From: an uncultured virus (IMG/VR IMGVR_UViG_3300035696_000009)
Lineage: Duplodnaviria > Heunggongvirae > Uroviricota > Caudoviricetes
Reading direction: 5' to 3' (one strand)
IMG/VR virus record: IMGVR_UViG_3300035696_000009
Length of the DNA: 64,000 bases
Each line of letters begins with the position of its first letter. Positions within the stretch are counted from its first letter, which is position 1. The notes under the pieces were generated by a model, which made no database searches, was not told the DNA's origin, and saw nothing but the letters and a program-made list of their open reading frames with translations. The position numbers were made by a program, and so were the translations under genes. Below, piece after piece: positions 1,496 to 57,444 of the stretch.

Positions 1496-1686
1496 TGGCG
1501 CACCGTGGAGTCGGGGAGGTAGATGCAGGCCTCGGAGCCCGGGGAGCAGACGCACGTGGCGTGGAGGTGCGGCCTCTCGGGGTCGCAACCCTTCAAGCGT
1601 GGGTCACGCCTGGCCCTCGTGCAGCACCACTGCCGCATCTCCCTCCCGCAGGCGCCGCAAACGTTAACGACCGTGACGTTCATCAC
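1492..1686 (-). CDS. small Cys-rich protein
   Basis: 64 aa with 8 Cys; coupled to the polymerase stop. Confidence 0.55.
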   Translation of the reverse strand: MMNVTVVNVCGACGREMRQWCCTRARRDPRLKGCDPERPHLHATCVCSPGSEACIYLPDSTVRQ

Positions 1687-4031
1687 ATGTCGTCGAAGTT
1701 GTAGTCGACGTCGTCGTCGAAGAGGAGATCGTTCTCTTCGAGATCGCCGCCATCGGGCTGCTCCATGGCCTCAAGCTCCGCGGCCTTGAGCAGGAGCGCG
1801 TCGGGCGCGCGCTCGCCGACGGCGCGCGAGTAGGGAGCGGAGGAGACGTCGGGATCCATGGCCCTGACCGTGAGGATACCGTAGTCGGCGCCCCGGGGCC
1901 TCACGACTTTCGCGTCCCGCTTCGGCATCGGGTTGAGCGAGAGGTCCGTGGGCCGGGGGACCCAGCTTCCGTAGTTCGGCGAGCGCGTGTACGTCGGGTT
2001 CGCGGAGCTGGCGCCCGAGATCGTGATTTGGCTCTTCATGCCGCAGAACCGCTCGAGCTTGTCGTTCTCGATGTGGATCTCCTCCTTGCCCTGCGCGAAC
2101 GCGGTGGTCATCGCCTCCCACGCCTCGAACATCGCGGCGCGGCCGATGCCGCGCGCGCGGACGGTCTTCAGCTCCTCCTGGGTCGGGTTGAGCGGGAAGT
2201 AGATGCCGGGCCGCGCGAAGAAGACGCCCTTCTTCACGACCTTGCGCTCCCAGCCGCCGAGCGGTTTGTGCGCGAGGTCGCAGCCGATGGCGCCGCAGGC
2301 GGAGCACTTCTCGCCCTTCTTCTGCGCGGCCTCCGTCTCGGCGGGCGAGCGTCGTGCGTTCATCGTCCCGGTGTCCATCGGGGCCGGGGTCTTGATGTCC
2401 TCGCGGGTGTAGATGCCGTCGGTGGCGATGGAGAGCAGGTTCGAGAGGTCGTCGTGGAGCGACATCATCTCGAGGATCTGCGCGCGGCAGCCGGAGGTGA
2501 TCATGCCGGCCCAAATCCAGCTCTGGAACGGCGGGGTGCCGCCGACGCTCTGGGCGAGCTTGCCGTAGCACGAGTTGCAGCCGAGCTTGAGCGCGATGCC
2601 GGCGCCCTCCTTGCCGAGGCGGAGCCTGTTCATGTAGTAGCGCGAGATCATCCTGAACGGCTCGCACCGGCAGGGCCCGTCGAGGACCCACGCGCTCCGG
2701 AACTTGACGTACGGGAAGAGCTTCTCGCCGGCGAGGTACTCGTCGCGCCACACCCACCCGCCGCCGGACCTGTCGGGGAAGGTGATGCTGCCGTCCGCGT
2801 CGCGGTACGGGAACGGCGCCCACGGCAGCTTCTCCTTCGGCTCCTCCAGCCGGTACTGGACGAGCGCGGCCTTGGCCTTGAGCATGTCCTTCCTGCTCTT
2901 GGTCTTCGTCCAGGTGCCGTGCTCGAGGCATGGCAGGAAGCAACACTGATAGGGGTAGGCCGACGAGATGTCGAACGAGTAGACCGGCCCCTCGATCGGG
3001 CCGATCACGCTGTGCTCGAACCGGCCGCCGAAGAACGCGCTCGACACGGCCTCCTTCATCGCGTCGGGCGGCTCCTTGCGCTTCTCCTTGATGCCCATGA
3101 GGCCGAGCATGGCGGAGGCGGAGGATCCCGCGCCGTAGAAGTTCTTCAGCTCGAGGCCGGCGTCCGCGTGCGCGTCGACGAGTTTGCGCGCGAGCTGCCC
3201 GAGGTACATGCACTCGCTCCAGCAGTAGGCCTTGATGGCCTCGTCGTCGAGCCGGTCGAACTCGGAGCGCTTGTCCTTCATGACCTCGATCTGGCAGACC
3301 GGGCAGGCGGCGGAGAGGCACGGCTTGTTGTTGCTGCAGCCCTCGGCGGTGGCGACGCGCCAGTCGCGGAGCGCGACCGTGAACTTGCTCTGGTAGAACT
3401 TGAACGTGTCCCAGATGATCCGGCTCCGCGTGGCGACCTTGCCCTGGCGCGTCTTGTACCGGACCGCGACGGTGAACTTCGTTCCCTGCATGTTGAGGAG
3501 GTAGACCCTCTCGGTCCTCGGGTCCTTCCAGCGGACGGGGAAGGGCGCGGTCACCTTGCTGCCCGGCGGTCTCTGCCTGAGTTCGGGGCGGACGAGCCTG
3601 TAGAGCGCGTCGTTCGGCACGTCGGCGAGGAGCTTCGTGAGGTCGTAGTTGAACGAGAAGGCGAAGCACTTCACCGAGGCCGGCAGTTCGAGGAAGAAGT
3701 CGAGGCACGCGCTCGTGGAGAGGCCGGCGGGGTCCTCCACGCTCCAGCGGTTCTTGCCGAACTCGTCGGCGGCGCAGAGCATGACGTAGAGGTGGGGGTT
3801 CCTGCCCTTGCCCTCGCCGTCGACGCCGGCGAAGATCTCCCCCGGGGTCTCGTTCTCCTTGACCTGCTTGGCGCGCCTGCGCGGCGGGGGCCCGAGCGGC
3901 CCGAGCGGCTTGTCGGCCGGCCCCTCGATCGCCTTCTTGATCTCTTCCTGGAAGGCGACGGCGTCCTTCGCGCGTGCGATGGAGAGCTGGCGGCCGGTGA
4001 CGGGTTTCGCTTCTTTCTTGGGCTTCGACAT
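1683..4031 (-). CDS. polB: B-family DNA polymerase (protein-primed/piPolB-like), ~782 aa
   Basis: ExoI GVDGEG, ExoII FNYD, GGRFE, PolA FDISSAYP, PolB KLGCNSCYGKLAQ, PolC IATDG; start MSKPKK at a TGATG overlap. Confidence 0.92.
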   Translation of the reverse strand: MSKPKKEAKPVTGRQLSIARAKDAVAFQEEIKKAIEGPADKPLGPLGPPPRRRAKQVKENETPGEIFAGVDGEGKGRNPHLYVMLCAADEFGKNRWSVEDPAGLSTSACLDFFLELPASVKCFAFSFNYDLTKLLADVPNDALYRLVRPELRQRPPGSKVTAPFPVRWKDPRTERVYLLNMQGTKFTVAVRYKTRQGKVATRSRIIWDTFKFYQSKFTVALRDWRVATAEGCSNNKPCLSAACPVCQIEVMKDKRSEFDRLDDEAIKAYCWSECMYLGQLARKLVDAHADAGLELKNFYGAGSSASAMLGLMGIKEKRKEPPDAMKEAVSSAFFGGRFEHSVIGPIEGPVYSFDISSAYPYQCCFLPCLEHGTWTKTKSRKDMLKAKAALVQYRLEEPKEKLPWAPFPYRDADGSITFPDRSGGGWVWRDEYLAGEKLFPYVKFRSAWVLDGPCRCEPFRMISRYYMNRLRLGKEGAGIALKLGCNSCYGKLAQSVGGTPPFQSWIWAGMITSGCRAQILEMMSLHDDLSNLLSIATDGIYTREDIKTPAPMDTGTMNARRSPAETEAAQKKGEKCSACGAIGCDLAHKPLGGWERKVVKKGVFFARPGIYFPLNPTQEELKTVRARGIGRAAMFEAWEAMTTAFAQGKEEIHIENDKLERFCGMKSQITISGASSANPTYTRSPNYGSWVPRPTDLSLNPMPKRDAKVVRPRGADYGILTVRAMDPDVSSAPYSRAVGERAPDALLLKAAELEAMEQPDGGDLEENDLLFDDDVDYNFDDM

Positions 4032-4816
4032 CAGGCGGTCGCGGTCCCGAGCGACGGGGGGCTGATGCCGAGCGTGTAGATCTCGCGGGCGGTGAGCCCC
4101 GTGGCGGCGGCGATCCTGTCGTACTCGCTGTCGAACGTGCCGCGCCTGATCGCGTCGCGTATGAGCCTTTCGGCGCGCTGCCAGTCCTTCCAGGTTACCT
4201 TCACCGCGCCCGGTCTGGCGCCCTGGAGCGTGAGCCCGCGCTCGAACACCTCGCGCGGCGGGAGGCCGAGGACCTTCGCGATGACCTCCCACTCCATGAA
4301 GAACGACTTGCTCTGGATGGCCTGCTTGAGGAGCACGTCGGCCTTGGCCCAGTTCGCGCGAAGCTCCTCCATCCTCGCCCTCTCCTTCTCCTCCGCCCTC
4401 CGGGCGCGCTCCTCTTCCTTCTCGCGCCTCTCCTTCTCCTCGCGGCCGGCGGCGGCGATCCTCTCCTTGACCTCGCGCTGCTTGAGGACCTCGCGGCCGG
4501 CGGCCGAGAGGTTCTTGATGTACCGCTTCTGCACTTCGGGGGTGAGGTGGTTGCGGACGAGCGACTCGAGGATGAACGCGTCGCGCTCGGAGAGTTCCCC
4601 GGGGCGCCGGCGCGGCGCGGTCTTCTTCGCGGCCGGCTTCGCGGGTCTCTTCTTGGCGCGTTCGATGGCGGCGACGGCGCGCTCGAGCTTCTCCCTCGAG
4701 ATCGGCCGCCCGTCCTTGCGCGCGCGCCTGCCGCCGGCGTCGATCTTGATCCCGCGGCCGGCGAGCGCGCGCACGTGCCCGCGGGCGAGCGAGGCGATCG
4801 TCTTGCGCTTCTTCAC
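4031..4816 (-). CDS. basic helical protein, candidate terminal protein or DNA-binding protein
   Basis: K/R-rich with coiled coil; translationally coupled directly upstream of polB. Confidence 0.6.
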   Translation of the reverse strand: MKKRKTIASLARGHVRALAGRGIKIDAGGRRARKDGRPISREKLERAVAAIERAKKRPAKPAAKKTAPRRRPGELSERDAFILESLVRNHLTPEVQKRYIKNLSAAGREVLKQREVKERIAAAGREEKERREKEEERARRAEEKERARMEELRANWAKADVLLKQAIQSKSFFMEWEVIAKVLGLPPREVFERGLTLQGARPGAVKVTWKDWQRAERLIRDAIRRGTFDSEYDRIAAATGLTAREIYTLGISPPSLGTATA

Positions 4817-5236
4817 CGTGGCCCCTCTGGAAGAGTCGGGACGGTGTCAAGTTTAAAGCGCTTGCAATGAACGACAGAGCAGGTAAGCTTCTTGGTGCGC
4901 ATGGTTGGGATGCGCCGCCGACCAGACTTGTGAAGGAGCGCCGCCGAGGAGTCGAGACCTCAGGCGGCGCTTGGCGTTTGAGAGATTTAGAGAGCGCCCA
5001 TTCGTGCGGTCGGCAGTGGCAGGACCTCCTCATCGGGCTGGATGCCCCGACCGGCTCGCGCCGATCGCGGGGATTCAGGGCCGAGTTTTGGTTCTAACAC
5101 CGCGGCTCTGCCGCTTTCCAGAGGAAACGAGATCGTGCCGCTGCCGTGACGCAAGGGTGCGTAGGCACTGATGTATTGGGCGTGCGTGTTGCACGCAATT
5201 TTTCTGCGCTGGAAAGCCGTTGACACCAGGGGGCGG

Positions 5237-6022
5237 TCACGCCCCCGGGCCCGGCCCCCCATCAGTACTCTGATTTTGAGAATTGTCCGGCGGCGACCGC
5301 AGGAGCTGGTCCCGCATCTTCCCCGCGGGGGCGTGCGGCCTCCAGTACCAGCAGCCCTTGCACCGGAAGTCCCGGTAGTCGGAGAGGGCCCCCTCCTCGC
5401 CGGTCTCGAGGACGTCGCGACCGCCGGTCACTTCGCGCACTACGCGGAGGTCGTCCTCCATCGCGAGCTTCTCGGTGCGGTCGCAGGTCGCGCACCGAGT
5501 CTCGGGCCGCGCGAGCTGCGCCTCGCGCGTCCTCTTGGCCTCGATCGCGACGATGACGGGATCGCTCTTGGCCGCGCGGAACTCCTCGTACACGTGCTTG
5601 GCGTGCGCGAGCGTCGAGGCGAGCCCGGCGGTGACGGCCGTGATGTAGTTGTGCGCCTCGTCCTCGGCGTAGTGCTTGAGGAGCCTCTGGTCCTCGGTCT
5701 CGACGGGGACGGGCGGGGCGAACTCGTCCTTGTGCTTGCCGGCCATCTCGTGGACCGCGGGCCCGTGCACCCAGATGTCCCCGCGCTTGCCGAGCTTCTG
5801 GAACGGCAGCTCCTTGTGGACCAAGACGCGCAGGCGCATGGACGCGAGGGAACGGTAGCCGGGCAGGTGCTTGAGGAGCTGGTGGGCTTCCCGGAGCGGG
5901 ATCATGTCCTTGTCGGCCGGGGTTCGACGAACCTTGAACGGGAGGGGGTTCCTGAAACCCTTGGTGGACTTCCTGGGCTTGGGCTTCTTGCTGGTTTCGG
6001 GGATCGGGGTCGCGTTGGCCAT
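5237..6022 (-). CDS. putative DNA-binding regulator with Zn finger
   Basis: Basic N-terminus, excisionase-like segment (IPLREAHQLL...), CATC and CKGC. Confidence 0.6.
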   Translation of the reverse strand: MANATPIPETSKKPKPRKSTKGFRNPLPFKVRRTPADKDMIPLREAHQLLKHLPGYRSLASMRLRVLVHKELPFQKLGKRGDIWVHGPAVHEMAGKHKDEFAPPVPVETEDQRLLKHYAEDEAHNYITAVTAGLASTLAHAKHVYEEFRAAKSDPVIVAIEAKRTREAQLARPETRCATCDRTEKLAMEDDLRVVREVTGGRDVLETGEEGALSDYRDFRCKGCWYWRPHAPAGKMRDQLLRSPPDNSQNQSTDGGPGPGA

Positions 6023-6199: not shown

Positions 6200-7459
6200 A
6201 TGCCGACCTTTGATTTCGCAGTCGAGACTCGCCGCGAGGTGACCGTCGCGATCGCCGACCGGCTCCGCTACGACAAGCCCGCCTTCGAGGACAAGGGCGA
6301 CGAGGAGAGCCGGAAGATCGTGCGCATGAGCCTCCGGTTCCGCGACCCGCACGGGGGCCGGGAGGACGACATCACGGAATGGGACGAGCGCGACCTCTAC
6401 GGCAAGGGCATCGGGATCCCGACGATCGTGAGGGGCGTCGAGCTGGCCGCGTGCCGCGACGCCGCGTACCGCTTCGGCGGCGACTGCGTCTACACGCTCG
6501 CGTTCCACGCGAAGAGCTACAACAACCGATCGACGTTCGTGTTCAAGGTCCCGGGAGGGCAGGAGGTGCAGCACCTCGCGCTCGCGCCTGGTCGCGGCGG
6601 CCCGCACGGCGGGAGGGAGGAGGTCGGGATCGCGGAGCGGCTCATGCCGGACCTCCTGAAGTACGTGTCCGAGAAGGAGGCGCGCATCGAGCAGAAGGCC
6701 GAGCTGGTGTTCAACACGATCATGAAGCAGAACCAGCAGTACAGCGACGTCGTGCAGGGATACACCGACCGCGAGCTGAAGCTCCGCGAGGTCGCGCTGA
6801 ACGCCGAGGACCATCAGTACGAGCGGGACAAGAAGCGCAAGCAGGACGAGGAGGACGCGAAGACGAAGCGCGAGAGCTTCGAGTTCCTGAAGGAGAAGGT
6901 CGCGCCCGAGCTTCTCCCGCACGTGATCCGGGCCATCCAGCGTTTCAGCGGCGGTCCCGGTGGCTACGCGAACTCGCCGGATTTCCAGGCCTGGTACGCT
7001 GAGCAGAAGCGCACGAACGGGAAGGCGGAACGGCCAGAGGAGCACGCCAACGGCAGGAACGGGCACGGCAAGCCGCAGCCGCAGGGCGAGGGGGAGGACG
7101 GGCCGCCGGCGCCCGACCTCGGCGATCTCAAGATACGGGTCGCGCTGGACACGGCGCGCTTCGTGTCGCTCTGCCGGTCGCGTGGTAAATTCGAGGCCGT
7201 GCGCGACGTCCTCAGCGAGGAGCAACGGGCCCTGTTCGACGAGGTCGTCGCCGCGAGCGAGGCCCCCGACCTCGACGAGGAGGAGGGGGTGGAGCGGATC
7301 ACGGGCCTGGCGCTCATGTTCGGCGCCGCTATGCAGTCGGACCCCCTCACGGGCAAGAAGCTCCTCGACCTCCTCGACGGCATCAGCAAGCTCGCGCTCG
7401 TCGAGCTGTCGAACCTGCTCGAGATGTACTACAAGGCCGCGCAGTCGGCGGGAGCGTGA
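6200..7459 (+). CDS. hypothetical protein with coiled coil, 419 aa
   Basis: GAGGA RBS, typical codon usage, first gene of the plus block. Confidence 0.8.
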   Translation: MPTFDFAVETRREVTVAIADRLRYDKPAFEDKGDEESRKIVRMSLRFRDPHGGREDDITEWDERDLYGKGIGIPTIVRGVELAACRDAAYRFGGDCVYTLAFHAKSYNNRSTFVFKVPGGQEVQHLALAPGRGGPHGGREEVGIAERLMPDLLKYVSEKEARIEQKAELVFNTIMKQNQQYSDVVQGYTDRELKLREVALNAEDHQYERDKKRKQDEEDAKTKRESFEFLKEKVAPELLPHVIRAIQRFSGGPGGYANSPDFQAWYAEQKRTNGKAERPEEHANGRNGHGKPQPQGEGEDGPPAPDLGDLKIRVALDTARFVSLCRSRGKFEAVRDVLSEEQRALFDEVVAASEAPDLDEEEGVERITGLALMFGAAMQSDPLTGKKLLDLLDGISKLALVELSNLLEMYYKAAQSAGA

Positions 7460-8073: not shown

Positions 8074-8250
8074 ATGAAGAGAGCGAAACTCCAGCGCCTC
8101 GAAGTCTACGTCGACCCCGCGCTCGCGAGGGCCCTCGGCGGGCTCGCCGACATGGAGGACCGAACGGTGTCAAACTACGTGGCGCGTGTCCTCGCCGAAC
8201 ACGTCGAGGCGCACGCCACGGGCCGGCGCAGACGCAAGGACGGTGACTGA
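8074..8250 (+). CDS. ribbon-helix-helix (CopG/Arc-like) regulator, 58 aa, not in the ORF track
   Basis: Hand translation MKRAKLQRLEVYVDPALARALGGLADMEDRTVSNYVARVLAEHV... Confidence 0.75.
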   Translation: MKRAKLQRLEVYVDPALARALGGLADMEDRTVSNYVARVLAEHVEAHATGRRRRKDGD

Positions 8251-8251
8251 C

Positions 8252-8986
8252 ATGCGCCACATTTATCTGATGTTGATTTTGGTCGGCTGCTCGGGTGCGA
8301 GCCCCGCGCTCACTTTTCCCGACGGCGGGGACGCCGCAGATCCCAGCGACGGGCCCCCCGTCGCGGACGCCGCCACGGACGCGCCCGTTGACCCTGACTC
8401 TGGCGACGCCGATGCGGGCCCGGCCGACTCCGGCAGCGGCGACGGCTACGACGGATACACGCTCCCGTCGTACCGGCGCGTCTTTCTCACGTCGAAGACT
8501 TTCGGGCCGAACTTCGGCGGGCTCGCGGTCGCCGACAAGGCGTGCGCCGACGCGGCGGCGGGCGCCGGCCTCGGCGGGAACTGGGCCGCTTGGCTCTCGA
8601 CGAAGGCGACGAGCGCGGCGTCGCGTCTCGAGCACGCGGCAGTGCCCTACAAGCTCCTTGACGGGACCGAGATCGCCGCGAACTGGTCGTCCCTGACGAC
8701 GGGGCCGCTCTCGGCCCCGATCGGCCTCGACGAGAACGGCAAGGCCGTTCCCATCGCGTACTACACGTCCGGCTTCGCCTGGACGGGCACGGCCGCGGAC
8801 GGCTCCACGAGCACGACGTACACCGACAGCACGTGCTCCGACTGGACGTACGCGAGCGGGTCGGACGACGCGGCGCACGAGGGCGCCTGCGGGATCGACA
8901 ACCAGACGGGCGCGGACTGGACCGACTACGTCTCCTACTGCGAGGCGGCGGCCACGCTCTCCTTCATCTGCATGGAGCAGCCGTGA
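8252..8986 (+). CDS. lipoprotein with DUF1554/endostatin-like domain
   Basis: Lipobox LVGC, D/A-rich linker, RRVFLTS...ADKAC...WAAWLS...AWTGT...CSDW...ICMEQ. Confidence 0.8.
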   Translation: MRHIYLMLILVGCSGASPALTFPDGGDAADPSDGPPVADAATDAPVDPDSGDADAGPADSGSGDGYDGYTLPSYRRVFLTSKTFGPNFGGLAVADKACADAAAGAGLGGNWAAWLSTKATSAASRLEHAAVPYKLLDGTEIAANWSSLTTGPLSAPIGLDENGKAVPIAYYTSGFAWTGTAADGSTSTTYTDSTCSDWTYASGSDDAAHEGACGIDNQTGADWTDYVSYCEAAATLSFICMEQP

Positions 8987-10065
8987 GCGGCGTCACGATC
9001 CACGTCTCGACGGCGCACGGCGGCGAGGGGTGGTGCGAGCACCTTGCGTCGAGGCTCTCGAGCATCCACGCAGGAGCGCACGTGCGGGTGAGCGAGGGCG
9101 CGGAGGACGACGTCTTCGTCTGGATGGACGAGATGGGCGACGTCGCCGAGGGCGCGGGGGCGAGCTGCGACGAGTGCGCGCCGGTGGGTGCGGACGCGGG
9201 TGAGCGCGGAAGCCTCGACCGCGTCATCAGCGCGGCGGACGACCTGGCGGCTCGCGTGCTCGGCGAGTGTAGGGTCATCCGCAAGGCTTGGGGTCGATCC
9301 GCGCGCCGGACGCCTTATCCGCTGCGGGCCTGGTTGTTCGCCCTCGTGGGAGCCTGTACGTCCCTGGCCACGGCGGGATGCTCCACCGACACCTTCCTGT
9401 ACCCTGACGGCGGCGATCCAGGGGACGCGCAGACGGATGCGGCGGTGGAGTCTGGTCGGGCGGACGCGGACGCTGCGGTCGATGGCCCCGTGACGGTGGA
9501 CGCCAGCACCGACTCCGCGGAGGCGGACGCGCATGTCCAGGCCTACAGGCGCGTCTTCATCACCTCGGGGGACTACTCGGCGAATTTTGGTGGTTCCTCC
9601 GGGGCCGATTCGACGTGCGGTTCTGTCGCGACGGGCGCGGGGCTCGGCGGCACGTGGGCCGCGTGGCTCTCCACGTCGACGTCGAGCGCCGCCTCGCGCC
9701 TCGAGCACGCGAGCGTCCCGTACCAGTTGCTCGACGGCACCGTCGTCGCGAACGATTGGACGGGCCTCGCGTCCGGATCGCTCCTCCACGCCATCGATCG
9801 GGACGAGCACAACACGCTCGTGCTGGTCAACGAAACCACGGCGCCTTTCTCCGGGGTCGCCTGGACGGGCACCGCGCCCGACGGCACGACGCTCGCCGGG
9901 TGCAACAGCTCGTCCGGTTGCACGTGCGCGAACTGGACCGAGGGCAGCGATAGTTACGCCGGCTCTTTCGGCCTCGGTTCCTCCACGAACTCGAGCTGGA
10001 CGGAGGAGAATTATCTCTACGTCTGCGGGCAGCAGTACTCGCTCTACTGCATCGAGCAGCCGTGA
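8983..10065 (+). CDS. paralogous DUF1554-like lipoprotein with N-terminal extension
   Basis: RRVFITS...WAAWLS...LYCIEQP; internal lipobox-like TAGC; GTG overlap. Confidence 0.75.
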   Translation: MSGVTIHVSTAHGGEGWCEHLASRLSSIHAGAHVRVSEGAEDDVFVWMDEMGDVAEGAGASCDECAPVGADAGERGSLDRVISAADDLAARVLGECRVIRKAWGRSARRTPYPLRAWLFALVGACTSLATAGCSTDTFLYPDGGDPGDAQTDAAVESGRADADAAVDGPVTVDASTDSAEADAHVQAYRRVFITSGDYSANFGGSSGADSTCGSVATGAGLGGTWAAWLSTSTSSAASRLEHASVPYQLLDGTVVANDWTGLASGSLLHAIDRDEHNTLVLVNETTAPFSGVAWTGTAPDGTTLAGCNSSSGCTCANWTEGSDSYAGSFGLGSSTNSSWTEENYLYVCGQQYSLYCIEQP

Positions 10066-10195: not shown

Positions 10196-10251
10196 TAATA
10201 GGTGACGGGCGGTCTTCGTCGTGGCTGCTGCATTTCGACGGACCCGTCACC
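10196..10251 (+). promoter_or_regulatory. AATAGGTG element variant plus downstream hairpin
   Basis: TAATAGGTGA; inverted repeat GGTGACGGG...CCCGTCACC. Confidence 0.45.
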
Positions 10252-10304
10252 ATGAACACACAAGCCGCCCCGCGAGCTGTCCCTCAATTTATGAGGATTG
10301 CGCC

Positions 10305-11573
10305 TTGAACGGCCAAGGCCCGCACTCGCAGCAGCACGGGTACGTCCCGGGCCTGCCGGAGTACTTCACCCACAACCAGTACGGGCAGGTCGCCCCGTTC
10401 GGTTACGCGTTCAACCGCCAGGGCGAACTCGTCCAGCTCCCTTACGCGCCGTACGCCGAGGGGCCGCAGATCGCGTGGGAGTCGCCCGACAACCCCGACT
10501 ACCTCCAGTACGCCCAGGGCCGATCGACGATCGAGAACCAGCCCAGCCCAGACCCGCGCCTGCCCGCTCGCTACGGCAAGCAGGACTCCGTCGGGCACCG
10601 CGCGCCGATCACGCACCAGGACGTCGCCATCGTCCCGCTGAGCGAGAGGCTCAGGCGCCGGGACGGCGACGACATCGCGCAGCAGGAGGAAGGGACCTGG
10701 AGCCCAGCGACCTTCGACACGCCGGCCTCGCCGGTGCGCATCCGCTGGGAACTCGGGCGCGAGATCCTCGGCGTCGTGCAGGTCGACCCGCCTGCGCCCA
10801 GCAGCAACTCCCCGCTCCTCGTCGTGCCGGTGGGTTCGAGCGAACCCGCGACGCCGTTCTTCGGCGGGGCCGTCTCGATCGCCGTCGCGGCGTTCGGGCA
10901 CCTCGGCACCCAGCGCCAGATGGCGTTCGACGTGCGGCCGGGCACCATGGTGAAGCTCCCGACGGTCGATTCGTTCCTCCGGATCGCCGGGCGCATCGTC
11001 CCGCGCTACTTCGCCCACGCGGACACCGGCGCGGAGCCGGACATTCTCCGGACGTACCTCCTCTACCCCGGCGGCCCCGAACTCACGAACGATTCGTTCT
11101 CGGACCTGCCCCCGAACATCATGGAGCTTCAGGGGAACATCCCAGGCACGATCGTGAACGCCGGGGCGCAGCAGGTCCCCGTGATCTTCTCGGGGTGGCC
11201 CGCCGAGGGCCTCTCCCCGACGCCCGACCAGGAGACGCTCCCGACGCGCATCTTTAACGGCAGCGTGCCGTCGAGCGGTCCCTCGCCTGCGCCCTTCACG
11301 AACCGCGCGCGGATCCCCATCCCGCACGGCGCGATCTCGGTCGCGATCTTCGGGGGGTTCTACAACCCCGCGGACACGCCCGCCGCGGTCACGGTCGAGT
11401 GGACGCAGAACCTCGACATCCCTGGGGCGACTGTCGGGCCGTTCCCGTCCGACCCGGAGTCGCCCGTGCCGATCGTGCCCGGCGCCACGTCCATCGACGT
11501 CTTCGGCGGCAACAGCGCCGCCGCGGGGTCCATCGAGATCCCGTTCTTCGCGTTCTTCTATATCAATGTTTGA
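10305..11573 (+). CDS. putative structural protein (beta-rich C-terminus)
   Basis: TTG start after GAGGA; Pro-rich, beta-strand pattern. Confidence 0.7.
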   Translation: MNGQGPHSQQHGYVPGLPEYFTHNQYGQVAPFGYAFNRQGELVQLPYAPYAEGPQIAWESPDNPDYLQYAQGRSTIENQPSPDPRLPARYGKQDSVGHRAPITHQDVAIVPLSERLRRRDGDDIAQQEEGTWSPATFDTPASPVRIRWELGREILGVVQVDPPAPSSNSPLLVVPVGSSEPATPFFGGAVSIAVAAFGHLGTQRQMAFDVRPGTMVKLPTVDSFLRIAGRIVPRYFAHADTGAEPDILRTYLLYPGGPELTNDSFSDLPPNIMELQGNIPGTIVNAGAQQVPVIFSGWPAEGLSPTPDQETLPTRIFNGSVPSSGPSPAPFTNRARIPIPHGAISVAIFGGFYNPADTPAAVTVEWTQNLDIPGATVGPFPSDPESPVPIVPGATSIDVFGGNSAAAGSIEIPFFAFFYINV

Positions 11574-46046: not shown

Positions 46047-46238
46047 ATTGCTCGCGCATCGAGCAAGGAATCCGGTTAGGCCGTTACACTCTTTCTGCCT
46101 ACCTAGCCCCGGCCAGGGGGTCCGGATATCTGGCCCGAACGCCCGCCTCCTCTCCCCCTCATCGCGGGATGAGGAGGCGGGCGTCCTCGGTTTTAGAGCT
46201 TTGATTTTCTTCCACGGTCCGAACGCAGCGAGGTCTCC

Positions 46239-48084: not shown

Positions 48085-48086
48085 AC

Positions 48087-49724
48087 ATGGGACCGATCCC
48101 GATCCTGATCCTCGGCGGCGTCGTCTTCTACCTCTACGAGAAGGACAAGAACCCGGCGTGGTCGCCCTTCGCCCGCCTCCTCGCGACGCCGGCCGACAAG
48201 GTCGTCGCGCTCGAGAAGGTCAAGGTGACGAGCGTGCCGACACCGAGTCCCACGGTGGCGCTCGACCCGCACATGTCGACCGACCAGGTCAAGCAGGTGA
48301 ACACCCTGCTCACGACCGAGACGGACCCGAAGAAGATCGCGGCGCACGCGGTCGCGCAGAGCGCGCTCGGCAACGAGAACAGCGCGCTCGCGCTCGCCGC
48401 GAAGGCGAACGCCGTCGGCGAGGCGATGGCGACCGGAGCCAGCGACGTCGACCTCCACAAGAAGCAGATCGAAGGGGTCGCAGCCGCCGCACCGCCGGCA
48501 GGCGCTGTCCCGATCGACTCGCCCATGACGCCGTGCGAGGCGCAGGTGCTCCTCAACGTGCTCGCGACGCGCCAGGGGCACCTCCACGTCGAGGGCGTCC
48601 CGCTGCCGCTCCCCATCACCAACGTGCTCGACGCGGAGACCGCGCACCTCATCACCATCTTCCAGGCCGAGGTGCACCTGCCGACGTCGGGGATGCTCGA
48701 CCAGGAGACCGCGAAGGCGCTCCGCATGGAGGCGCTCGGCCAAGGCGCGGCGCCCCACGTGGTCGGCTACTGGGACGAGTTCGGACGCTGGCGCCATCAT
48801 CATCACCACCACTGGCACCCGCCCGTCGTCGATGAAGTCGTCGTGCCCGAGGTTGTCGGTTACTGGGACGAGTTCGGACGCTGGCGCCACCACCATCACC
48901 ACCACTGGCACCCGCCCGTCGTCGAGGAAGTCGTCGTGCCTGAAGCCGCAGGCTGGGGACCCATCGCTACGGGCTGGAACGGCCACGAGCACGGGCGCGG
49001 GCACGAACAGTTTGGCCGCGGACACGAGCAGTTCGGCCACGGTGGACGCGGGCACGAGCAATTCGGCCACGGCCACCCACAATTCGGTCGTGGGCGTGAG
49101 CACGAACATTTTGGCCGCGGACGCGAGCACGAACATTTCGGCCGTGGTCGCGGGATGATGCCGCAGCAGGGTTTCCCGGGCGAGATGGAGGAGGAGATGC
49201 CTCCCATGCACCGTCGCCATCACCGGCGTCACCTGACGCCGGAGCAGCTCGCTGAGCAACAGCAGGCCGAGATGATGCGACACCACCACCGCCGCCACCA
49301 TCATCGGCACCCGATGCAGCAGCCGATGCAGCAGCCGCAGCCGCCGATGGACCAAGACGACCAGTCAATGGAAGCGCAGACGCCCGTCGGGATACCCATC
49401 GGCGGTGGGGGCGCGATGGCGGCGACAGCGCTACCGGGCGCCGCGGGGACCGATGCCGCCACGGACGCCGGAGCGCAAGCAGGCACCGAAGTCGCGCAAG
49501 GTTGGTGGCCCGCGCCAGGAGACGAGTATTCGTACTTCCCGCAGCAAGGGCTCCAGGGGGGCGCGTACTACCCGCCGCACGAGCCGTCGGGCGGCAGCGC
49601 CTACTACCCGATGCAGCCCACCGGCGACTACGGCGGCTACGGCTACATCGGCGAGGGCGGCCTCGGTGGGCTCGGCGGCTACGGGAGCTGGGGGAGCTTC
49701 GGCGGCTGGGGACACGGGCTCTGA
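48087..49724 (+). CDS. TM protein with PG-binding-like domain and His-rich repeats
   Basis: FQAEVHLPTSGMLDQET; two 31-aa VVGYWDEFGRWRHHHHHHW repeats. Confidence 0.8.
   Translation: MGPIPILILGGVVFYLYEKDKNPAWSPFARLLATPADKVVALEKVKVTSVPTPSPTVALDPHMSTDQVKQVNTLLTTETDPKKIAAHAVAQSALGNENSALALAAKANAVGEAMATGASDVDLHKKQIEGVAAAAPPAGAVPIDSPMTPCEAQVLLNVLATRQGHLHVEGVPLPLPITNVLDAETAHLITIFQAEVHLPTSGMLDQETAKALRMEALGQGAAPHVVGYWDEFGRWRHHHHHHWHPPVVDEVVVPEVVGYWDEFGRWRHHHHHHWHPPVVEEVVVPEAAGWGPIATGWNGHEHGRGHEQFGRGHEQFGHGGRGHEQFGHGHPQFGRGREHEHFGRGREHEHFGRGRGMMPQQGFPGEMEEEMPPMHRRHHRRHLTPEQLAEQQQAEMMRHHHRRHHHRHPMQQPMQQPQPPMDQDDQSMEAQTPVGIPIGGGGAMAATALPGAAGTDAATDAGAQAGTEVAQGWWPAPGDEYSYFPQQGLQGGAYYPPHEPSGGSAYYPMQPTGDYGGYGYIGEGGLGGLGGYGSWGSFGGWGHGL
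48759..48944 (+). repeat. 93-bp tandem duplication encoding a His6 module
   Basis: Two copies with synonymous differences. Confidence 0.85.
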
Positions 49725-50482: not shown

Positions 50483-51004
50483 ATGTCGATGATCGAGTGG
50501 ACCCCAGCGAAGAAAGCCGTGGTGGCGGGCGCCGCCATCGGCATGGGTCTGCTCATTTTCTCGTCGCGGAGGCGCTACAAAGACCACAACGGCTCCGCGC
50601 TCGCCCACTCGCTCGACCCGGAGCTTGACGCTCCGACGCGCTCGGCCGTGCTGACCGCGCTCGCGGGCGAGCACGACCCCGCGGTCCTCTCGGTGCTCGG
50701 GGCCAAGCTCGCCGCCGCGGGGTTCGACCAGACCGCCGCGACGGTGGGCAAGCGCGCCGCCGAAGTCTCGCGGGCGAACTCGCCGCACCACGTCGGGCAA
50801 GCCTTCGGGCACTCGGCCATGGTGTGGCACGCCCAGAGGATGCTCCGGCAGCTCGGCTACGCGGTGCCGCTCACGGGCGTACAGGACGACGCGACGACCC
50901 TCGCGGTGAAGCGCTTCCAGTCGCTCCACGATCTCGACATCGACGGGATCATCGACCCGAGGACCAACGCCGCGCTCGCCGCGGCCGTGGCGGGGAGCAC
51001 CTGA
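50483..51004 (+). CDS. TM-anchored peptidoglycan-binding protein
   Basis: AQRMLRQLGY..TGVQDDAT..AVKRFQ..LDIDGIIDPRT. Confidence 0.85.
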   Translation: MSMIEWTPAKKAVVAGAAIGMGLLIFSSRRRYKDHNGSALAHSLDPELDAPTRSAVLTALAGEHDPAVLSVLGAKLAAAGFDQTAATVGKRAAEVSRANSPHHVGQAFGHSAMVWHAQRMLRQLGYAVPLTGVQDDATTLAVKRFQSLHDLDIDGIIDPRTNAALAAAVAGST

Positions 51005-51005: not shown

Positions 51006-51602
51006 ATGCCGCTCCTCTTCTGGCTCCTCCCCGGCGGCTTCCTGATCTGGATCCTCGCCCAGCGCCACGCCGAGGCGCGGATCGCGCGCGAGCGGCAGAT
51101 GACGGGGCCCGCGGGGCCGGTCACGGGCGCCCATTATCCCTTTCCGCGCCCGCCCGCGCGCGAGCGTCTTCTTCTCCCGCGGCGCCCGGCGCCCGCGACG
51201 ACGGCCGACTACCTCCAGCACCTCCACGAAGCGACGGTCGCCGCGCAGATCCTCGACACGTACAAGCCCCAGGCCCTCGCCGCCGACATCGTCTCGCTCA
51301 TGCAGGCGCCGGCGGAGGTCGTGCAGGCATTCCGCGTGCTCTCGGCGCCGCTCGACGTGCTCTCCGCGCAGAAGGACCTGAACGTCCTCGGCGCGCAGCC
51401 GCCGCTCGCGGAGGACGGCGTCCCGGGCCCAGAGACGCGCGCGGCTGTGAGGAGCCTGCAGGCGCGCTTCGGCGAGCCGGCGACGGGCAGGATGGACGGC
51501 CGGACGGCGCTGCTCGTCCGGTACTCGATCGGGTGCATCAACGCGCAGGATCGCGCGCACATGGGCGCCGTGGCCGCGCAGGCAGCGCAGACAGGAGCAT
51601 GA
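51006..51602 (+). CDS. TM-anchored peptidoglycan-binding protein
   Basis: AQKDLNVLG..LAEDGVPGPETRAAVRSLQ. Confidence 0.8.
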   Translation: MPLLFWLLPGGFLIWILAQRHAEARIARERQMTGPAGPVTGAHYPFPRPPARERLLLPRRPAPATTADYLQHLHEATVAAQILDTYKPQALAADIVSLMQAPAEVVQAFRVLSAPLDVLSAQKDLNVLGAQPPLAEDGVPGPETRAAVRSLQARFGEPATGRMDGRTALLVRYSIGCINAQDRAHMGAVAAQAAQTGA

Positions 51603-52347: not shown

Positions 52348-52659
52348 ATGGTCGATTACAAGAAGGCAGCCCTCGTGGGCGCGGGCATCGGGACGGTCGC
52401 GAGCTTTATCTTCGGACGCAAGCGCGCGCGCGGCCTCGACTGGGGCAAGATCCTCAAGTACGCGGCCGTGGGCGGCGGCGCCACGATGGTGGCCGGGTAC
52501 GCGATGGCCGAGACCGGCAGGCCCATCGGGATGCTGGCCGCGAAGGGCGAGTTCACGGGCTGGGAGCACGGCGGCTGGGGCCGCGGCTGGGGCCACGAGC
52601 ACGAGCACGAGGGCTGGGGCCACGAGGGCCGCGAGCGCGAGCACTTCCGCCGCTGGTAA
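52348..52659 (+). CDS. small membrane protein
   Basis: 2 TM; KGEFTGW then H/W-rich tail. Confidence 0.8.
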   Translation: MVDYKKAALVGAGIGTVASFIFGRKRARGLDWGKILKYAAVGGGATMVAGYAMAETGRPIGMLAAKGEFTGWEHGGWGRGWGHEHEHEGWGHEGREREHFRRW

Positions 52660-53236: not shown

Positions 53237-54793
53237 ATGATCGACCGGAGCAAACCCATCGGCCACCACTGCACGGCCTGCATGCGCGGCGTCGGCCCGG
53301 ACTGGGTCCCGTCCTGCCCGCACTGCGGCGCGTCCGGCACGATCGCGGTCGGCGACGTGACCTCAACCGGCAACCGCTGGATCGGCGCGGGCCAGAAGCC
53401 GCAGCTCCTCGCGGACGTGCCGGAGGCCGACTACGAGCGCATCTCGACCGGGACGCGCGAGTTCGACCGCGTGCTCGGCGGGGGCATCGTCACGGGCTCG
53501 ACGGTGCTGATCGCGGGCGACCCGGGCATCGGCAAGAGCACGCTGCTCCTCCAGGTCTGCATCGACCTCTCGGTGGCCCCGATGACGGACGACCAGACGG
53601 GCGAGCGGATCGACGACCTCGTCATCCTCTACGTTTCGGCCGAGGAGACGACCTCGCAGATCAAGGGCCGCGCGGTCCGCCTCTCGAGGGAGTCGAAGAA
53701 GCTCTACCTCCACAACGAGTCCGACGTCACGGAGGTCGGCAAGCAGATCGCCGAGCTTGACCCGGACATCCTCATCGTGGACAGCATCCAGACCATGGTG
53801 ATGCCGGGCGTCGACGGGGCCGCCGGCACCGTGACGCAGGTGCGGGAGTGCGCGCTCTACCTCCGCGACCTCTGCAAGCGGCGCGGCATCGGCTGTTTCT
53901 TCGTGGCCCACGTGACGAAGGACGGGACCATCGCGGGCCCGAAGGTCCTCGAGCACCTCGTCGACGCGACGCTCGAGTTCCACAAGGAGGGGCTCGGAGA
54001 CATCCGCTCCATCCGCGCGAACAAGAACCGCTTCGGCTCGACGGAGGAGATGGCCCTCTTCCGGATGACCCGCGAGGGCCTGCGCTCGATCGAGAACCCG
54101 AGCGAGCTGCTCCTGCAGCACCACAAGGACGGCAAGGAGGGCGTGTGCATTGGCCTCGTCGCGACGGGCCCGCGCCCGTACGCGGTCGAGTTCCAGACGC
54201 TCCTCGGCCCGTCCTCCTCGAACGGGGCGTCGAGCGCGCAGCACAAGCGCGTGATCACGGGCCTCTCGAGCCAGCGCGCGACGCAGATCATCGCGATCCT
54301 CCAGCGGCGGCTCGGCCTGGACTTGAACCGCGAGGTCTTCGTGAACCTGCCTGGAGGCCTCGACGACGTGAAGGACCCGGCGCTCGATCTGCCGCTAGCG
54401 CTCGCCCTCGCGTCGTTCGCGCTCGGCACTGCCTTGCCCCCGTCCTTTGTCGCCTTCGGCGAGGTCGGCCTCGCGGGCGAAGTCCGCCCGGTCACGTACA
54501 TCGACGCTCGCATCAAGACCGCGATGTCGATGCACTTCGACATGATCGTGGGCCCCAGGCGCCCGTCCTACGACTTCGGGCCCGAGGCGTCACAAGCACT
54601 GGCGATGCCGCTCTCGGACGAGGAGGTGAACCTCAACGAGAGGTATTATCCCGTCACGTCGCTCGAGGAGGCGTTCGACCTGCTCGAGGGCTTCGTGATC
54701 GTGCCGCCCGAGCCCAAGCAATCGAAAATCAAGAAAGACAAACGCAAGAGCCCCCTCCGCGAGGCCGAAGAGAACGAGAGCGAGATCCAATGA
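53237..54793 (+). CDS. radA: DNA repair protein RadA/Sms
   Basis: CTAC..CPHC Zn finger, GDPGIGKST, IVDSIQ, KNRFG, GEVGLAGEVR. Confidence 0.95.
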   Translation: MIDRSKPIGHHCTACMRGVGPDWVPSCPHCGASGTIAVGDVTSTGNRWIGAGQKPQLLADVPEADYERISTGTREFDRVLGGGIVTGSTVLIAGDPGIGKSTLLLQVCIDLSVAPMTDDQTGERIDDLVILYVSAEETTSQIKGRAVRLSRESKKLYLHNESDVTEVGKQIAELDPDILIVDSIQTMVMPGVDGAAGTVTQVRECALYLRDLCKRRGIGCFFVAHVTKDGTIAGPKVLEHLVDATLEFHKEGLGDIRSIRANKNRFGSTEEMALFRMTREGLRSIENPSELLLQHHKDGKEGVCIGLVATGPRPYAVEFQTLLGPSSSNGASSAQHKRVITGLSSQRATQIIAILQRRLGLDLNREVFVNLPGGLDDVKDPALDLPLALALASFALGTALPPSFVAFGEVGLAGEVRPVTYIDARIKTAMSMHFDMIVGPRRPSYDFGPEASQALAMPLSDEEVNLNERYYPVTSLEEAFDLLEGFVIVPPEPKQSKIKKDKRKSPLREAEENESEIQ

Positions 54794-55680
54794 ACCGAAA
54801 CTTTCCGCCGCCCCCGCCCCGCCCCATGGACGCGCGCCTCGGCCGCCAAGACATGGGCGCCTACGCCCCGCCGCGCCTGCTCATGGCGCTCATCGGCCAG
54901 AGCGAGAGGCGCTACATGTTCCAGCAGGAGGCGCTCATGAAGCTCGACGCGGGCCTCGGCGACCTCGCGCTGGCGTTCGAGGGCGAGCAGCTCCCTCCCG
55001 CCATGGGCGAGCACCTCGCCATCCTCTTCGCGAAGGGGGAGGCCAAGAAGCAGAACCTCGAGAACATCATGAAGGGCGAGCTTGACTGGCAGGACGAGCT
55101 GAAGCGGTTCCTCATGGGCCGCGGACCGAGGGCTCCGATGCGCCGCCCGCCGCCGCAGCTCGGGCCGGGCTACCCGCAGCAGCAGTACCCGCAGCAACCG
55201 GGCCAATACCCGCAGCAGCCGGGATACCCGCAGCAGGGCTCCTACCCGCAGCCCGGAGGCGGAGCCTACGGGCCGGGCCCCGCCGAGCAGCAGCGAGGAG
55301 GGCAGTATGCGCAGCCGCAGCAGCAGCAACCACTGCCCGAGATGCCGCAAGGCCCCGTCGACTACCGCGACCCGAAGCAGGCCGCAGCAGCGCTCCTTCG
55401 GGCGCAGCCCATGCCGCTCGGTCCTATGTCGAACCAGCCGAACCAACCGATGCAGCAGCCGCAGCAAGGCGGCGCGTACGTCCCCCCGTACGTGCCGGGC
55501 GCAGCTCCGGCCCAGGCTGCGTACGGCGTCCCGCCCGGCGCGTACGTCCCGCCGCCGTCGCAGGCGCCAGTGGTCCAGGCCGCGCCCGAGACCGCGACGC
55601 AAGTGATGCAGCAGTCGCAGCCGCAGCCGGCCGTGAACGTCTCGGCCCCGAACGGGGCCACGAAGAACGCGACGTCTTGA
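54790..55680 (+). CDS. Gln/Pro-rich protein (GYPQQ repeats)
   Basis: ATG overlaps the radA stop. Confidence 0.75.
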   Translation: MNRNFPPPPPRPMDARLGRQDMGAYAPPRLLMALIGQSERRYMFQQEALMKLDAGLGDLALAFEGEQLPPAMGEHLAILFAKGEAKKQNLENIMKGELDWQDELKRFLMGRGPRAPMRRPPPQLGPGYPQQQYPQQPGQYPQQPGYPQQGSYPQPGGGAYGPGPAEQQRGGQYAQPQQQQPLPEMPQGPVDYRDPKQAAAALLRAQPMPLGPMSNQPNQPMQQPQQGGAYVPPYVPGAAPAQAAYGVPPGAYVPPPSQAPVVQAAPETATQVMQQSQPQPAVNVSAPNGATKNATS

Positions 55681-56058: not shown

Positions 56059-56559
56059 ATGCGGACCATCGACGCCAGCTTCATCTGCGACGGCCTCTGG
56101 GTGGGGAGCGCCCCGCCCACCGGCCACACGCTCGCCAGCACCGGGTTCTCCGTGCTCGCGCTCTGCGCGGAGGAGCACCAACCGCCGCACGAGGCGTTCC
56201 CCGGGATGTACGTCGTCCGGGTGCCGCTCATCGACGACGGCTCGCCGCTCACCCACGCGCAGATCGCGCGATCGATCGCGGCCTCCGAGGCTCTCACGAC
56301 CGCGCTCCGGAGGCACAAGGGCGTGCTCGTCACGTGCATGCAGGGCCGGAACCGATCCGGCTTCGTCGCGGCGCTCACCTTCGCGCGCATGACCGGCTGC
56401 GACGGCAGGACTGCGACGCGGGTCGTGCAGCAGCGGCGGCGCTCGCCGTTCGGGCCGGCGCTCACGAACCGCGAGTACAACAAGGCCCTCGCGCTCATCG
56501 GCCCCGCCCGCGAGCGCGGCGCGATTACGGCGCAGGCCGCCCACGCCGCGGGGGTGTGA
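56059..56559 (+). CDS. dual-specificity/PTP-like phosphatase
   Basis: LWVG..P, PLIDD, VLVTCMQGRNRS (CX5R). Confidence 0.85.
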   Translation: MRTIDASFICDGLWVGSAPPTGHTLASTGFSVLALCAEEHQPPHEAFPGMYVVRVPLIDDGSPLTHAQIARSIAASEALTTALRRHKGVLVTCMQGRNRSGFVAALTFARMTGCDGRTATRVVQQRRRSPFGPALTNREYNKALALIGPARERGAITAQAAHAAGV

Positions 56560-56560
56560 C

Positions 56561-57133
56561 GTGACCCCGTCCGACTTCGCGCACGCGGTCCTCGCGCGGC
56601 TCGGGCTCCCGGAGAGCGCGAATAACGTGGCCGCGCTCGTCGCGTTCCAGGCGAACGAGGGCGGGCACATGGCGAACGCCGCCGCCTACAACCCCATCAA
56701 CACGACGCTGAAGCTCCCCGGCAGCCACCCCGTGACGCCGGTCGGCGTGCAGGCATACTCGAGCTGGGACCAGGGGATCGAGGCGACCGCGAGGACGCTC
56801 GCGCAGTCGAACATGAGCGCCATCACGGCAGCCCTCAAGCGCAGCGCGCCGCCCGACGAGACGCTCCGCGCCGTCGCGGGCTCGCCTTGGGGCTGCACCA
56901 TCTGCAGCAAGACGCCGGCGGCGAGCCTCCAGCACTACGCGGACAAGCTCTTCCCCATCGGCAAGGGGATGCTCGACACGGGCGAGAGCACGCTCAAGGA
57001 ACTCTTCGCGTTCCGCTCCACGGCCTCGAAGGTCGGCGGGGCCGTGGTCGCGGCCTCCCTGCTCGCCGGGCTCGGCGTCGTCGGGTACCTGCTCGTGAGG
57101 AAGGTCAAGAGGGTCGAGGTGACGCCATCATGA
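56561..57133 (+). CDS. candidate lysozyme-fold muramidase with C-terminal TM
   Basis: ANEGG..YNPINTT..GVQAYSSWDQGIEAT. Confidence 0.55.
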   Translation: MTPSDFAHAVLARLGLPESANNVAALVAFQANEGGHMANAAAYNPINTTLKLPGSHPVTPVGVQAYSSWDQGIEATARTLAQSNMSAITAALKRSAPPDETLRAVAGSPWGCTICSKTPAASLQHYADKLFPIGKGMLDTGESTLKELFAFRSTASKVGGAVVAASLLAGLGVVGYLLVRKVKRVEVTPS

Positions 57134-57147
57134 AGGGATTTTGAGAA

Positions 57148-57444
57148 ATGCTCTACGTCGCTCCCGACGGGAGTATCCTCGACGACGGGTACGGGATGGC
57201 GACGGCGCCGGCCTACGCCGTGGACGAGCACGGCGCGCGGCTCGAGCTTTCGCCCGAGGACGCGCTCGGCCTCACGCGGCAGTACCAGGCCCAGTTCCGG
57301 AGCCGCCTCCCGCTCGGGGACGCGGTCGCGCGCGTGACGAAGGCCGTCGGCATCCAGCCGTGCACGCCGTGCGAGGCGCGCCAGCGCGCGATGAACCAGT
57401 TCGGCGACCGCCTCGCGGGTTACCTGCCCTGGCAGCGGCGCTGA
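57148..57444 (+). CDS. small CxxC protein
   Basis: LGDAVARVTKAVGIQPCTPCEARQ..MN. Confidence 0.7.
   Translation: MLYVAPDGSILDDGYGMATAPAYAVDEHGARLELSPEDALGLTRQYQAQFRSRLPLGDAVARVTKAVGIQPCTPCEARQRAMNQFGDRLAGYLPWQRR

Follow-up and report, generated by a model that had tools for sequence, protein, structure and literature searches.

The stretch analysed here, hereafter the window, comprises 64,000 nucleotides of the uncultured-virus record IMGVR_UViG_3300035696_000009 and carries, beside a DNA polymerase of the protein-primed type, a long block of putative structural genes that can be read as part of a large, tailless, virus-like element. By an exact 51-base match, the window was placed as the terminal 64 kb of contig Ga0326727_10000272, which is 218,816 bp long and derives from a peat metagenome; it lies on the minus strand, with window position 64000 at contig position 154172 and position 1 lying 645 bp from the contig end; with the adjoining 10 kb to its right (L001), about 74 kb of this contig were examined. 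The guanine-cytosine (GC) content ranges from 0.66 to 0.73 over the first 62 kb and falls to 0.60 in the final 2 kb of the window, and because lists of open reading frames (ORFs) at such GC are full of shadows, genes were called by us from codon-position GC (GC3). The resulting map has three parts: a short leftward arm (522-6022), a rightward block of some 55 genes (6200-57444), nearly all of them without a family, and a convergent leftward block starting at 57452. In all, 68 candidate proteins of the window were scanned against Pfam and PHROGs, and also against NCBIfam.

The leftward arm encodes what is, by its sequence, a protein-primed-type family B DNA polymerase (polB), in agreement with the preliminary description of this locus. 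The protein passes the curated Pfam threshold for PF03175 (DNA_pol_B_2; 34.2 bits against a cut-off of 25.8) and matches phrog_11768 (E 1.2e-29). An ORF of 1116 aa (1683-5033) was rejected as a single polymerase, being a composite whose 5' third (3861-5033) is an out-of-frame reading; since its first 390 codons are Arg-rich and overlie a separate high-GC3 gene (4031-4816), the polymerase was confined to 1683-3860. Among 50,697 phage records searched by tblastn, 15 matched the polymerase, at 24.5-30.4% identity over 25-58% of the query and with E-values down to 7e-39; these are 14 actinobacterial tectiviruses and one Vibrio phage, all of them tailless and with small genomes of 15.4-18.4 kb. An alignment of 27 sequences reveals invariant or nearly invariant columns at D14/E16, Y72/D73 and D297-Y302 (DISSAYPY), as well as at K425...N429..Y432 G433 K434 and T480 D481 G482, which correspond to the Exo I/II and A/B/C motifs. 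Neither the protein nor its profile matched a solved structure by sequence in the PDB.

The distribution of this polymerase is uneven. At least 1,273 homologs at E≤1e-5 were found among 7,998 scored candidates from a large protein collection, the top 120 mostly near 50% identity. Pattern scans derived from the polymerase alignment recovered three loci in 185,579 species genomes and four in IMG/VR, a single-sequence scan of a viral contig collection returned no match, and no plasmid in PLSDB carries the gene. In the phylum of a Polyangiaceae metagenome-assembled genome (MAG), the family occurs in one of 401 genomes, and that one is the MAG used as the search centre. The abundance of the family in metagenomes, together with its near absence from virus and genome collections, indicates that present virus-calling pipelines overlook a sizeable group of elements. 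Lying about 2.3 kb from the DNA end, the polymerase would, as its family implies, start synthesis at the termini from a terminal protein, for which the products of 4031-4816 and 5237-6022 are candidates; the C-terminal ~45 residues of the former are kept upstream of polB in three related loci (L006, L007 and L003).

In the rightward block, the 422-aa product of 10305-11573 is a candidate for a double-jelly-roll (DJR)-like major capsid protein (MCP), a role that the preliminary description had proposed for two beta-rich proteins and that now draws on a structural model. The protein has 38 homologs of near-constant size at 52-81% identity, and a profile search of 1.84 billion representatives returned 43 clusters, extending down to proteins of ~340 aa that cover the beta-rich part only. 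An AlphaFold2 model built from a 34-sequence alignment (predicted local distance difference test, pLDDT, 71.6; predicted template modelling score, pTM, 0.64) presents a disordered N-terminus of 122 residues followed by two beta-sandwich domains at ~125-305 and 310-422. The top match of this model in a Foldseek search of the PDB is P3 of PRD1 (E 4.2e-5, probability 0.85); Vp54 of PBCV-1 was matched at a probability of 0.94-0.95, and PR772 and STIV were matched as well. Among the Foldseek matches listed, all those aligning at least 180 residues across both domains are DJR proteins, namely those of phiCjT23, STIV, FLiP, PRD1 and PR772 and the GH172/DUF2961 enzymes. In BFVD, the model matched capsid-like proteins of nucleocytoplasmic large DNA viruses (NCLDV), the capsid protein of Gluconobacter tectivirus GC1 (probability 0.90) and also tail-fibre proteins. 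No match to an isolated phage was obtained with the sequence. Searches of the PDB by sequence with the products of 10221-11573, 36824-40024, 29650-31332, 56561-57133 and 6200-7459, and with a further alignment (A4), gave nothing useful (one chance-level match, E 0.94).

The remaining beta-rich candidates are the two paralogs at 45334-46008 and 46239-47087, which may serve in a vertex or penton role. The model of 46239-47087 (pLDDT 53) is non-diagnostic, because its confidence is low and its matches are to generic beta-sandwiches. Its neighbours in the protein atlas are labelled Uroviricota; the atlas yielded viral clusters without a name, a cluster look-up likewise supplied no names, and no homolog was detected in 401 + 401 sampled genomes of two phyla.

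The spike-like proteins noted earlier resolve into paralog families of spikes and fibres. Four large spike proteins have a common N-terminal module, with 58% identity between two of them across 661 residues; the fourth member of this module family is encoded at ~35900-36805, and the overlapping ORF 35824-36813 was rejected as a gene because it lies in the wrong frame. Domains of the PG_binding_1 family score above threshold in five proteins, occurring twice in 26048-27223 (76.7 bits). A hydropathy scan finds membrane segments in about twenty proteins, so that the small membrane proteins described earlier as "dozens" are indeed present, in a number nearer twenty; many end in Trp/Tyr-rich tails. 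Taken together, the block may encode a tailless, membrane-containing particle in which the two-jelly-roll protein would form the capsid, the twenty or so membrane proteins an internal lipid layer, the pair at 45334-47087 the jelly-roll vertices and the products of 29650-42506 the fibres and beta-helix spikes, while the five peptidoglycan-binding proteins would cross or lyse the cell wall. The seven tandem paralogs at 13750-17153 are possibly minor virion proteins.

Aromatic tails (...NWW, ...PWWV, ...YSWW, ...YPWSY, ...FGPW) were observed in most of the small membrane and Gly/His-rich proteins within 17949-27223, 42832-45163 and 52348-52659, and in the first of these regions 10 of the 11 called genes have at least two aromatic residues among the last six; the tails look like a common C-terminal sorting or anchoring signal. 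Repeats of His, Gly and Trp occur at 20954-21760, 25486-25860, 48066-49724 and 52348-52659, in the form of GHGFGGG runs, a duplicated HHHHHHWHPP segment and GRGHEQFG repeats, and might bind metal or be of low complexity. The seven tandem paralogs each start with MTDYAAAP.QPIVQG and share an LTLDEGLPGN motif, with no family match.

The absence of tailed-phage genes from the block, reported from the first inspection, extends through the window and on to 74 kb. The 68 window proteins gave no match to families of the terminase, the portal, the HK97 capsid, the sheath, the tube or an integrase, and no terminase, portal, HK97 capsid or tail family was matched by 14 flank ORFs reaching to 74 kb; two spike proteins give short, weak matches to the phrog_4577 'tail protein' family (~50 residues, E 7.5e-6 and 2.3e-7). 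A similar gene set is found in a 45,030-bp linear contig (G003:C100, composed of L009, L004 and L010) that is binned in an 'uncultured archaeon' MAG. This contig shares with the window the polymerase, a KaiC/RadA-like ATPase, the transglutaminase-like gene, spikes, peptidoglycan-binding proteins and a small basic protein, and it carries 116-bp inverted repeats of 88% identity at its exact ends, for which reason it is regarded as a complete or nearly complete linear genome. It has no terminase, portal or HK97 capsid match, its KaiC/RadA-like ATPase is its only P-loop ATPase, and a profile search found no homolog of the 422-aa capsid candidate in it; with profiles of the capsid candidate, the 46239 protein and two further alignments (A4 and A5) run against the relatives, only the window itself was matched. 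Its PG_binding_1, CHAP and subtilase genes indicate that it is probably a mis-binned, bacterial, virus-like linear genome. Compared with the element of the window, its polymerase is 46% identical and lies mid-genome, its GC content is 48-49%, and it is five times smaller. The transglutaminase-like protein also has a homolog in L002, with a weak Transglut_core match; the L002 matches rest on an unpublished genome (G001).

These observations bear on the reading of the contig as a jumbo tailed phage (Caudoviricetes) that employs a protein-primed polymerase, with the hallmark genes on the other 144 kb and the window holding fibre, membrane and lysis genes. CheckV assigns completeness values of 13% and 6% to two related IMG/VR fragments (30,582 and 10,976 bp), which would correspond to genomes of ~180-235 kb, and the phrog_4577 matches of the spikes, the Uroviricota label on the atlas neighbours of 46239-47087 and the tail-fibre matches of the two-jelly-roll model in BFVD point the same way. 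Nevertheless, no hallmark gene is present in 74 kb or in the 45-kb relative with its terminal repeats, the phage relatives of the polymerase are all tailless, a conserved two-jelly-roll protein occupies the position of the tectiviral coat gene, and the contig and its signature proteins are absent from scans of the IMG/VR collection. We therefore consider a jumbo tailed phage unlikely.

The left end of the contig is reproducible. The first 10 kb of the window are present in six peat-metagenome runs, with no RNA run among the sequencing runs listed, and four of the six were compared along this segment. In three of these four, a single Logan contig spans positions 1-6000 without any difference and terminates 640, 375 or 643 bp past position 1, at depths of 96x, 59x and 133x, and the Joint Genome Institute (JGI) contig stops at 645 bp. 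This recurrent end fits a physical DNA end. Farther inward, runs X1 and X2 each show a break in their Logan contig at ~11,324, within the capsid-candidate gene, and run X3 shows one at ~38,140; these breaks may reflect strain variation.

The right end of the plus-strand block at 57444, which had been taken as the boundary of a 51-kb structural unit, does not hold as a limit. The convergent minus-strand block continues to at least the equivalent of 74 kb; in the 10 kb beyond the window, 2 of the 17 ORFs tested belong to a Pfam family (Ku and OmpA domain), and 7 of 14 GC3-supported ORFs match PHROGs, including the Ku-like end-binding phrog_4873 and an Arc-like repressor. Because phage-like genes continue past 57444, the element does not end there and no host flank is reached, so that the lineage is indeed unusually large, as first supposed, and much larger than known tectiviruses, at a size exceeding the one then given. 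The convergent block also contains an ABC transporter set, made up of an ATPase and a permease (window 61276-63952) together with a 593-aa protein whose C-terminal domain is of the OmpA family (L001 5136-6917), and a Ku-like end-binding gene at L001 1253-2335; GC is 0.55-0.60 around the transporter and Ku genes.

A prophage of ~57 kb, integrated in a bacterial chromosome and bounded on the right at ~57.4 kb, would account for the fall in GC from ~0.70 to 0.60 after 62 kb, for the ABC transporter genes at 61-64 kb and for the length of the contig. It is at odds with the lack of an integrase and of any tRNA gene in the 64-kb window, with a left end that has no repeat partner within 74 kb and coincides with the reproducible contig end, and with the gene content at 57-74 kb, which consists mostly of ORFans or phage families, Pfam families being present in just 2 of the 17 flank ORFs. 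Such an island is very improbable. A large independent replicon is likewise favoured over a common chromosomal island by the large contigs, the CheckV values and the rarity of the polymerase in genomes: of the 38 homologs of the capsid candidate, 11 lie on contigs that measure between 124,887 and 600,485 bp, and identical or nearly identical copies on contigs of 217,380 and 218,699 bp.

Walker A motifs in real genes of the window are limited to the ABC transporter and a RadA-like protein, which is thus the only P-loop protein of the plus-strand block. The latter matches phrog_26214 (E 6.8e-87) and scores 380.3 bits with TIGR00416, below the equivalog cut-off of 403.05, and is for this reason designated only RadA-like. 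When two phyla were sampled with 151 genomes each, of which 80 and 111 matched (the second sample including the unpublished genomes G001, G429 and G454), its identity reaches at most 46%; being equally distant from both phyla, it has no value as a host marker and was rejected as such. The myxobacterial-type host proposed in the preliminary description accordingly finds no support here, nor does it in the polymerase, found in the phylum of the Polyangiaceae MAG only in that search-centre MAG; lipoboxes, peptidoglycan-binding domains and the OmpA domain point more broadly to a bacterium with peptidoglycan.

The cellular-type cargo (ABC transporter, OmpA-domain protein, Ku) can be accommodated by a capsid-less linear plasmid or chromid, or by the telomeric arm of a linear chromosome, in which the polymerase would maintain the ends and the 51-kb block would encode cell-envelope proteins such as lipoproteins, peptidoglycan-binding proteins and adhesin-like beta-helices. 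The lack of a detected packaging ATPase and the occurrence of close relatives on contigs of 279 and 600 kb would follow as well, and the two-jelly-roll fold also exists in cellular GH172/DUF2961 enzymes (PMC8812541). Against this stand a gene order of tectiviral pattern, the assignment of every second flank ORF to a phage family, paralog families of fibres and spikes such as are typical of virions, the absence of the polymerase from PLSDB plasmids and the near absence of its family from binned genomes; moreover, neither the window proteins nor the representatives of the capsid-candidate family have a DUF2961 match in Pfam. Such a capsid-less replicon appears improbable to much the same degree as a jumbo tailed phage. 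The features of the window are compiled in Table 1.

Table 1. Features of the 64-kb window (positions in nucleotides; +, rightward; -, leftward).
Position	Strand	Feature	Basis
1-190	.	G-rich, non-coding, internally repeated sequence beside the contig end	Sequence reading, motif repeats
1115-1588	-	Small protein encoded downstream of polB; phage family of unknown function	phrog_5845, E 2.4e-26
1683-3860	-	Protein-primed-type family B DNA polymerase, 725 aa	PF03175, phrog_11768
4031-4816	-	Basic 261-aa protein upstream of polB; putative DNA-binding or terminal protein	GC3 0.96
5237-6022	-	Basic, Cys-containing 261-aa protein; last gene of the leftward arm	GC3 0.92; no family match
8186-10065	+	Two paralogous lipoproteins (8186-8986 and ~9199-10065)	41% mutual identity; lipobox-like N-termini; weak DUF1554 match below cut-off
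10305-11573	+	Major capsid protein candidate, 422 aa, two consecutive predicted jelly rolls, conserved	Model and Foldseek
13154-13498	+	115-aa protein, missed in the first ORF pass	
13750-17153	+	Tandem array of seven paralogs (140-174 aa) with a common N-terminus	Repeat families D1 and D7; E as low as 1e-30 in all-vs-all BLASTP
17949-29458	+	Cluster of membrane, Gly/His/Trp-rich and peptidoglycan-binding proteins, many with aromatic tails	Hydropathy, C-termini
29650-42506	+	Spike and fibre module, including a 560-aa beta-rich protein	Paralogy; phrog_13925 and short phrog_4577 matches
31336-33144, ~35900-36805, 36824-40024, 40047-42506	+	Spike family	Paralogy; homologs in the 45-kb relative
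33166-33981, 34004-34966, 34971-35924	+	Fibre-like paralogs	Common N-terminus
42832-44520	+	562-aa Gly/Gln-rich protein with peptidoglycan-binding domain	PF01471, 40.6 bits
45334-47087	+	Two paralogs (45334-46008, 46239-47087) with a C-terminal single beta-sandwich/jelly-roll domain in common	
47091-47546	+	Transglutaminase-like small protein, kept in relatives	tblastn matches in L004 and L002
47563-53229	+	Small membrane, His-rich and peptidoglycan-binding proteins	Hydropathy; PG_binding_1 in 50483-51004 and 51006-51602
53237-54793	+	RadA/Sms-like ATPase: zinc ribbon, RecA-like core, Lon-like C-terminus	TIGR00416, phrog_26214
54826-55680	+	Pro/Gln-rich protein of ~285 aa, missed in the first ORF pass	
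56059-57444	+	Last plus-strand genes: DSPc-like protein, membrane-anchored 190-aa protein, 98-aa protein	GC3 0.95-0.96
57452-64000	-	Start of the convergent block running past the window	Pfam and PHROG matches
61276-62142, 63173-63952	-	ABC transporter ATPase; permease	Pfam and PHROG matches

The dual-specificity-phosphatase-like product of 56059-56559 (166 aa) scores 27.7 bits with DSPc, below the cut-off of 33.5.

The reading that we tentatively prefer, placing it somewhat short of probable, is that the window constitutes the left-hand 64 kb of an extrachromosomal, virus-like replicon that is linear and akin to a giant tectivirus, or of a linear replicon derived from such a virus. The element would span no less than 74 kb and would probably take up the entire 219-kb contig. 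A viral, tailless nature is the best-supported interpretation of the locus, yet it is not proven, given weak evidence from the fold, a missing packaging ATPase and an examined sequence that leaves out two thirds of the contig. Several observations count against it. None of the 41 representatives of the capsid-candidate family matches Pfam or PHROGs, leaving the family with no sequence link to known capsids; its alignment gave nothing against the coat protein of Rhodococcus phage Toil by hhalign; and the Foldseek matches have TM scores of only ~0.2 and include, at lower probability, bicupin seed globulins. Scans of viral contigs with the capsid-candidate family, the 46239 family and two distant members (P0195 and P0186) found no locus, and the end sequence of the window matched nothing in viral contig or species-genome collections. 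Scans for Walker A motifs and with Pfam, PHROG and NCBIfam detected no FtsK/HerA (A32-like) packaging ATPase within 74 kb, and the first 800 bases of the window recur in neither inverted nor direct orientation within 74 kb, so that the two features that the preliminary description had thought worth seeking, a packaging ATPase and inverted terminal repeats, did not appear in this segment. The runs that agree on the left end may include the source sample or stem from one campaign, and a repeat boundary would look alike; similarly, near-equal assembled sizes may reflect the same repeats or one strain assembled repeatedly, and the contigs of close relatives, at 279 and 600 kb, are as compatible with a chromosome as with a virus.

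A more far-reaching version of this virus-like, tectivirus-related reading would make the element a giant bacterial member of the DJR realm: a tailless, membrane-containing virus with a linear, protein-primed genome of ~219 kb, about fourteen times that of PRD1, in a family ranging from 45 to more than 200 kb. Packaging would then proceed without a canonical FtsK/HerA ATPase, possibly by means of the RadA/KaiC-like ATPase, the sole P-loop protein found family-wide, and the lineage would represent an independent case of prokaryotic gigantism parallel to the Nucleocytoviricota. We regard this version as doubtful, if less so than the jumbo-phage and capsid-less alternatives. To our knowledge, the known prokaryotic DJR viruses are small, and large genomes in the realm come only from viruses of eukaryotes. 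A bacterial DJR lineage of 74 to ~219 kb, if real, would indicate that capsid size is not limited in bacteria and would provide the question of giant-virus origin with a testable prokaryotic comparison. That a packaging ATPase of the canonical kind is apparently lacking, and is so even in the 45-kb relative with its complete genome, points to a packaging or assembly solution not known so far.

Among known systems, the Tectiviridae come closest, above all PRD1 and the actinobacterial members (Toil, Streptomyces phage WheeHeim and Microbacterium phage MuffinTheCat), and they include the closest phage relatives of the polymerase. In Toil, polB lies at 2015-3805 on the minus strand, divergent from a plus-strand block that encodes the packaging ATPase, the coat protein, small membrane proteins, a spike and lytic functions. 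The window repeats this layout on a larger scale, with a minus-strand polB at 1683-3860 and, starting at 6200, a plus-strand block that includes 10305-11573. Both have in common a leftward polB near the end and a rightward block with a coat gene or coat candidate, membrane proteins, wall-binding or lytic proteins and spikes. The element differs from tectiviruses in its size (a minimum of 74 kb and a probable ~219 kb, the matched phage records measuring 15.4-18.4 kb), in that no FtsK/HerA ATPase was detected beside the coat candidate, in the 120-residue disordered N-terminus of its coat candidate, and in its large paralog families and cellular-type cargo. The short genomes of this group, about 15-18 kb in the Tectiviridae and given as below 50 kbp for the Preplasmiviricota (PMC11071308), contrast with phage-like content that runs continuously for 74 kb or more on a contig of 218,816 bp. 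Metagenomic groups of prokaryotic DJR-MCP viruses are uncultivated elements recognised by their capsid gene, and in some of them family B polymerases and inverted terminal repeats occur (Yutin et al. 2018, PMC5894146); they pair the capsid gene with a packaging ATPase in short genomes, and the capsid candidate of the window matches none of the families of these groups in Pfam or PHROGs. The titles and opening abstract lines of the literature yielded no prokaryotic DJR or protein-primed virus larger than 100 kb. Pipolins and casposons are set apart from the element by an integrase (tyrosine recombinase) or Cas1 and by insertion at a tRNA or a target duplication; neither enzyme family was matched among the 68 proteins, the window has no tRNA, and no flanking repeats were found within 74 kb.

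Two groups of large viruses complete the comparison. Jumbo phages (Caudoviricetes of more than 200 kb) are comparable to the element in its probable size, in fibre-like paralogs and in auxiliary genes of cellular type, and unlike it in their terminase, portal, HK97 capsid, sheath and tube genes, none of which is found in the 74 kb examined. The Nucleocytoviricota, for their part, are distinguished from the element by the bacterial features of the latter (lipoboxes and PG_binding_1 domains), by its protein-primed polymerase and by NCLDV core genes, none of which was detected in it, but resemble it in a set of traits that are here predicted from genes: genomes of hundreds of kb, a capsid protein of DJR type, an internal membrane and extensive paralog families.

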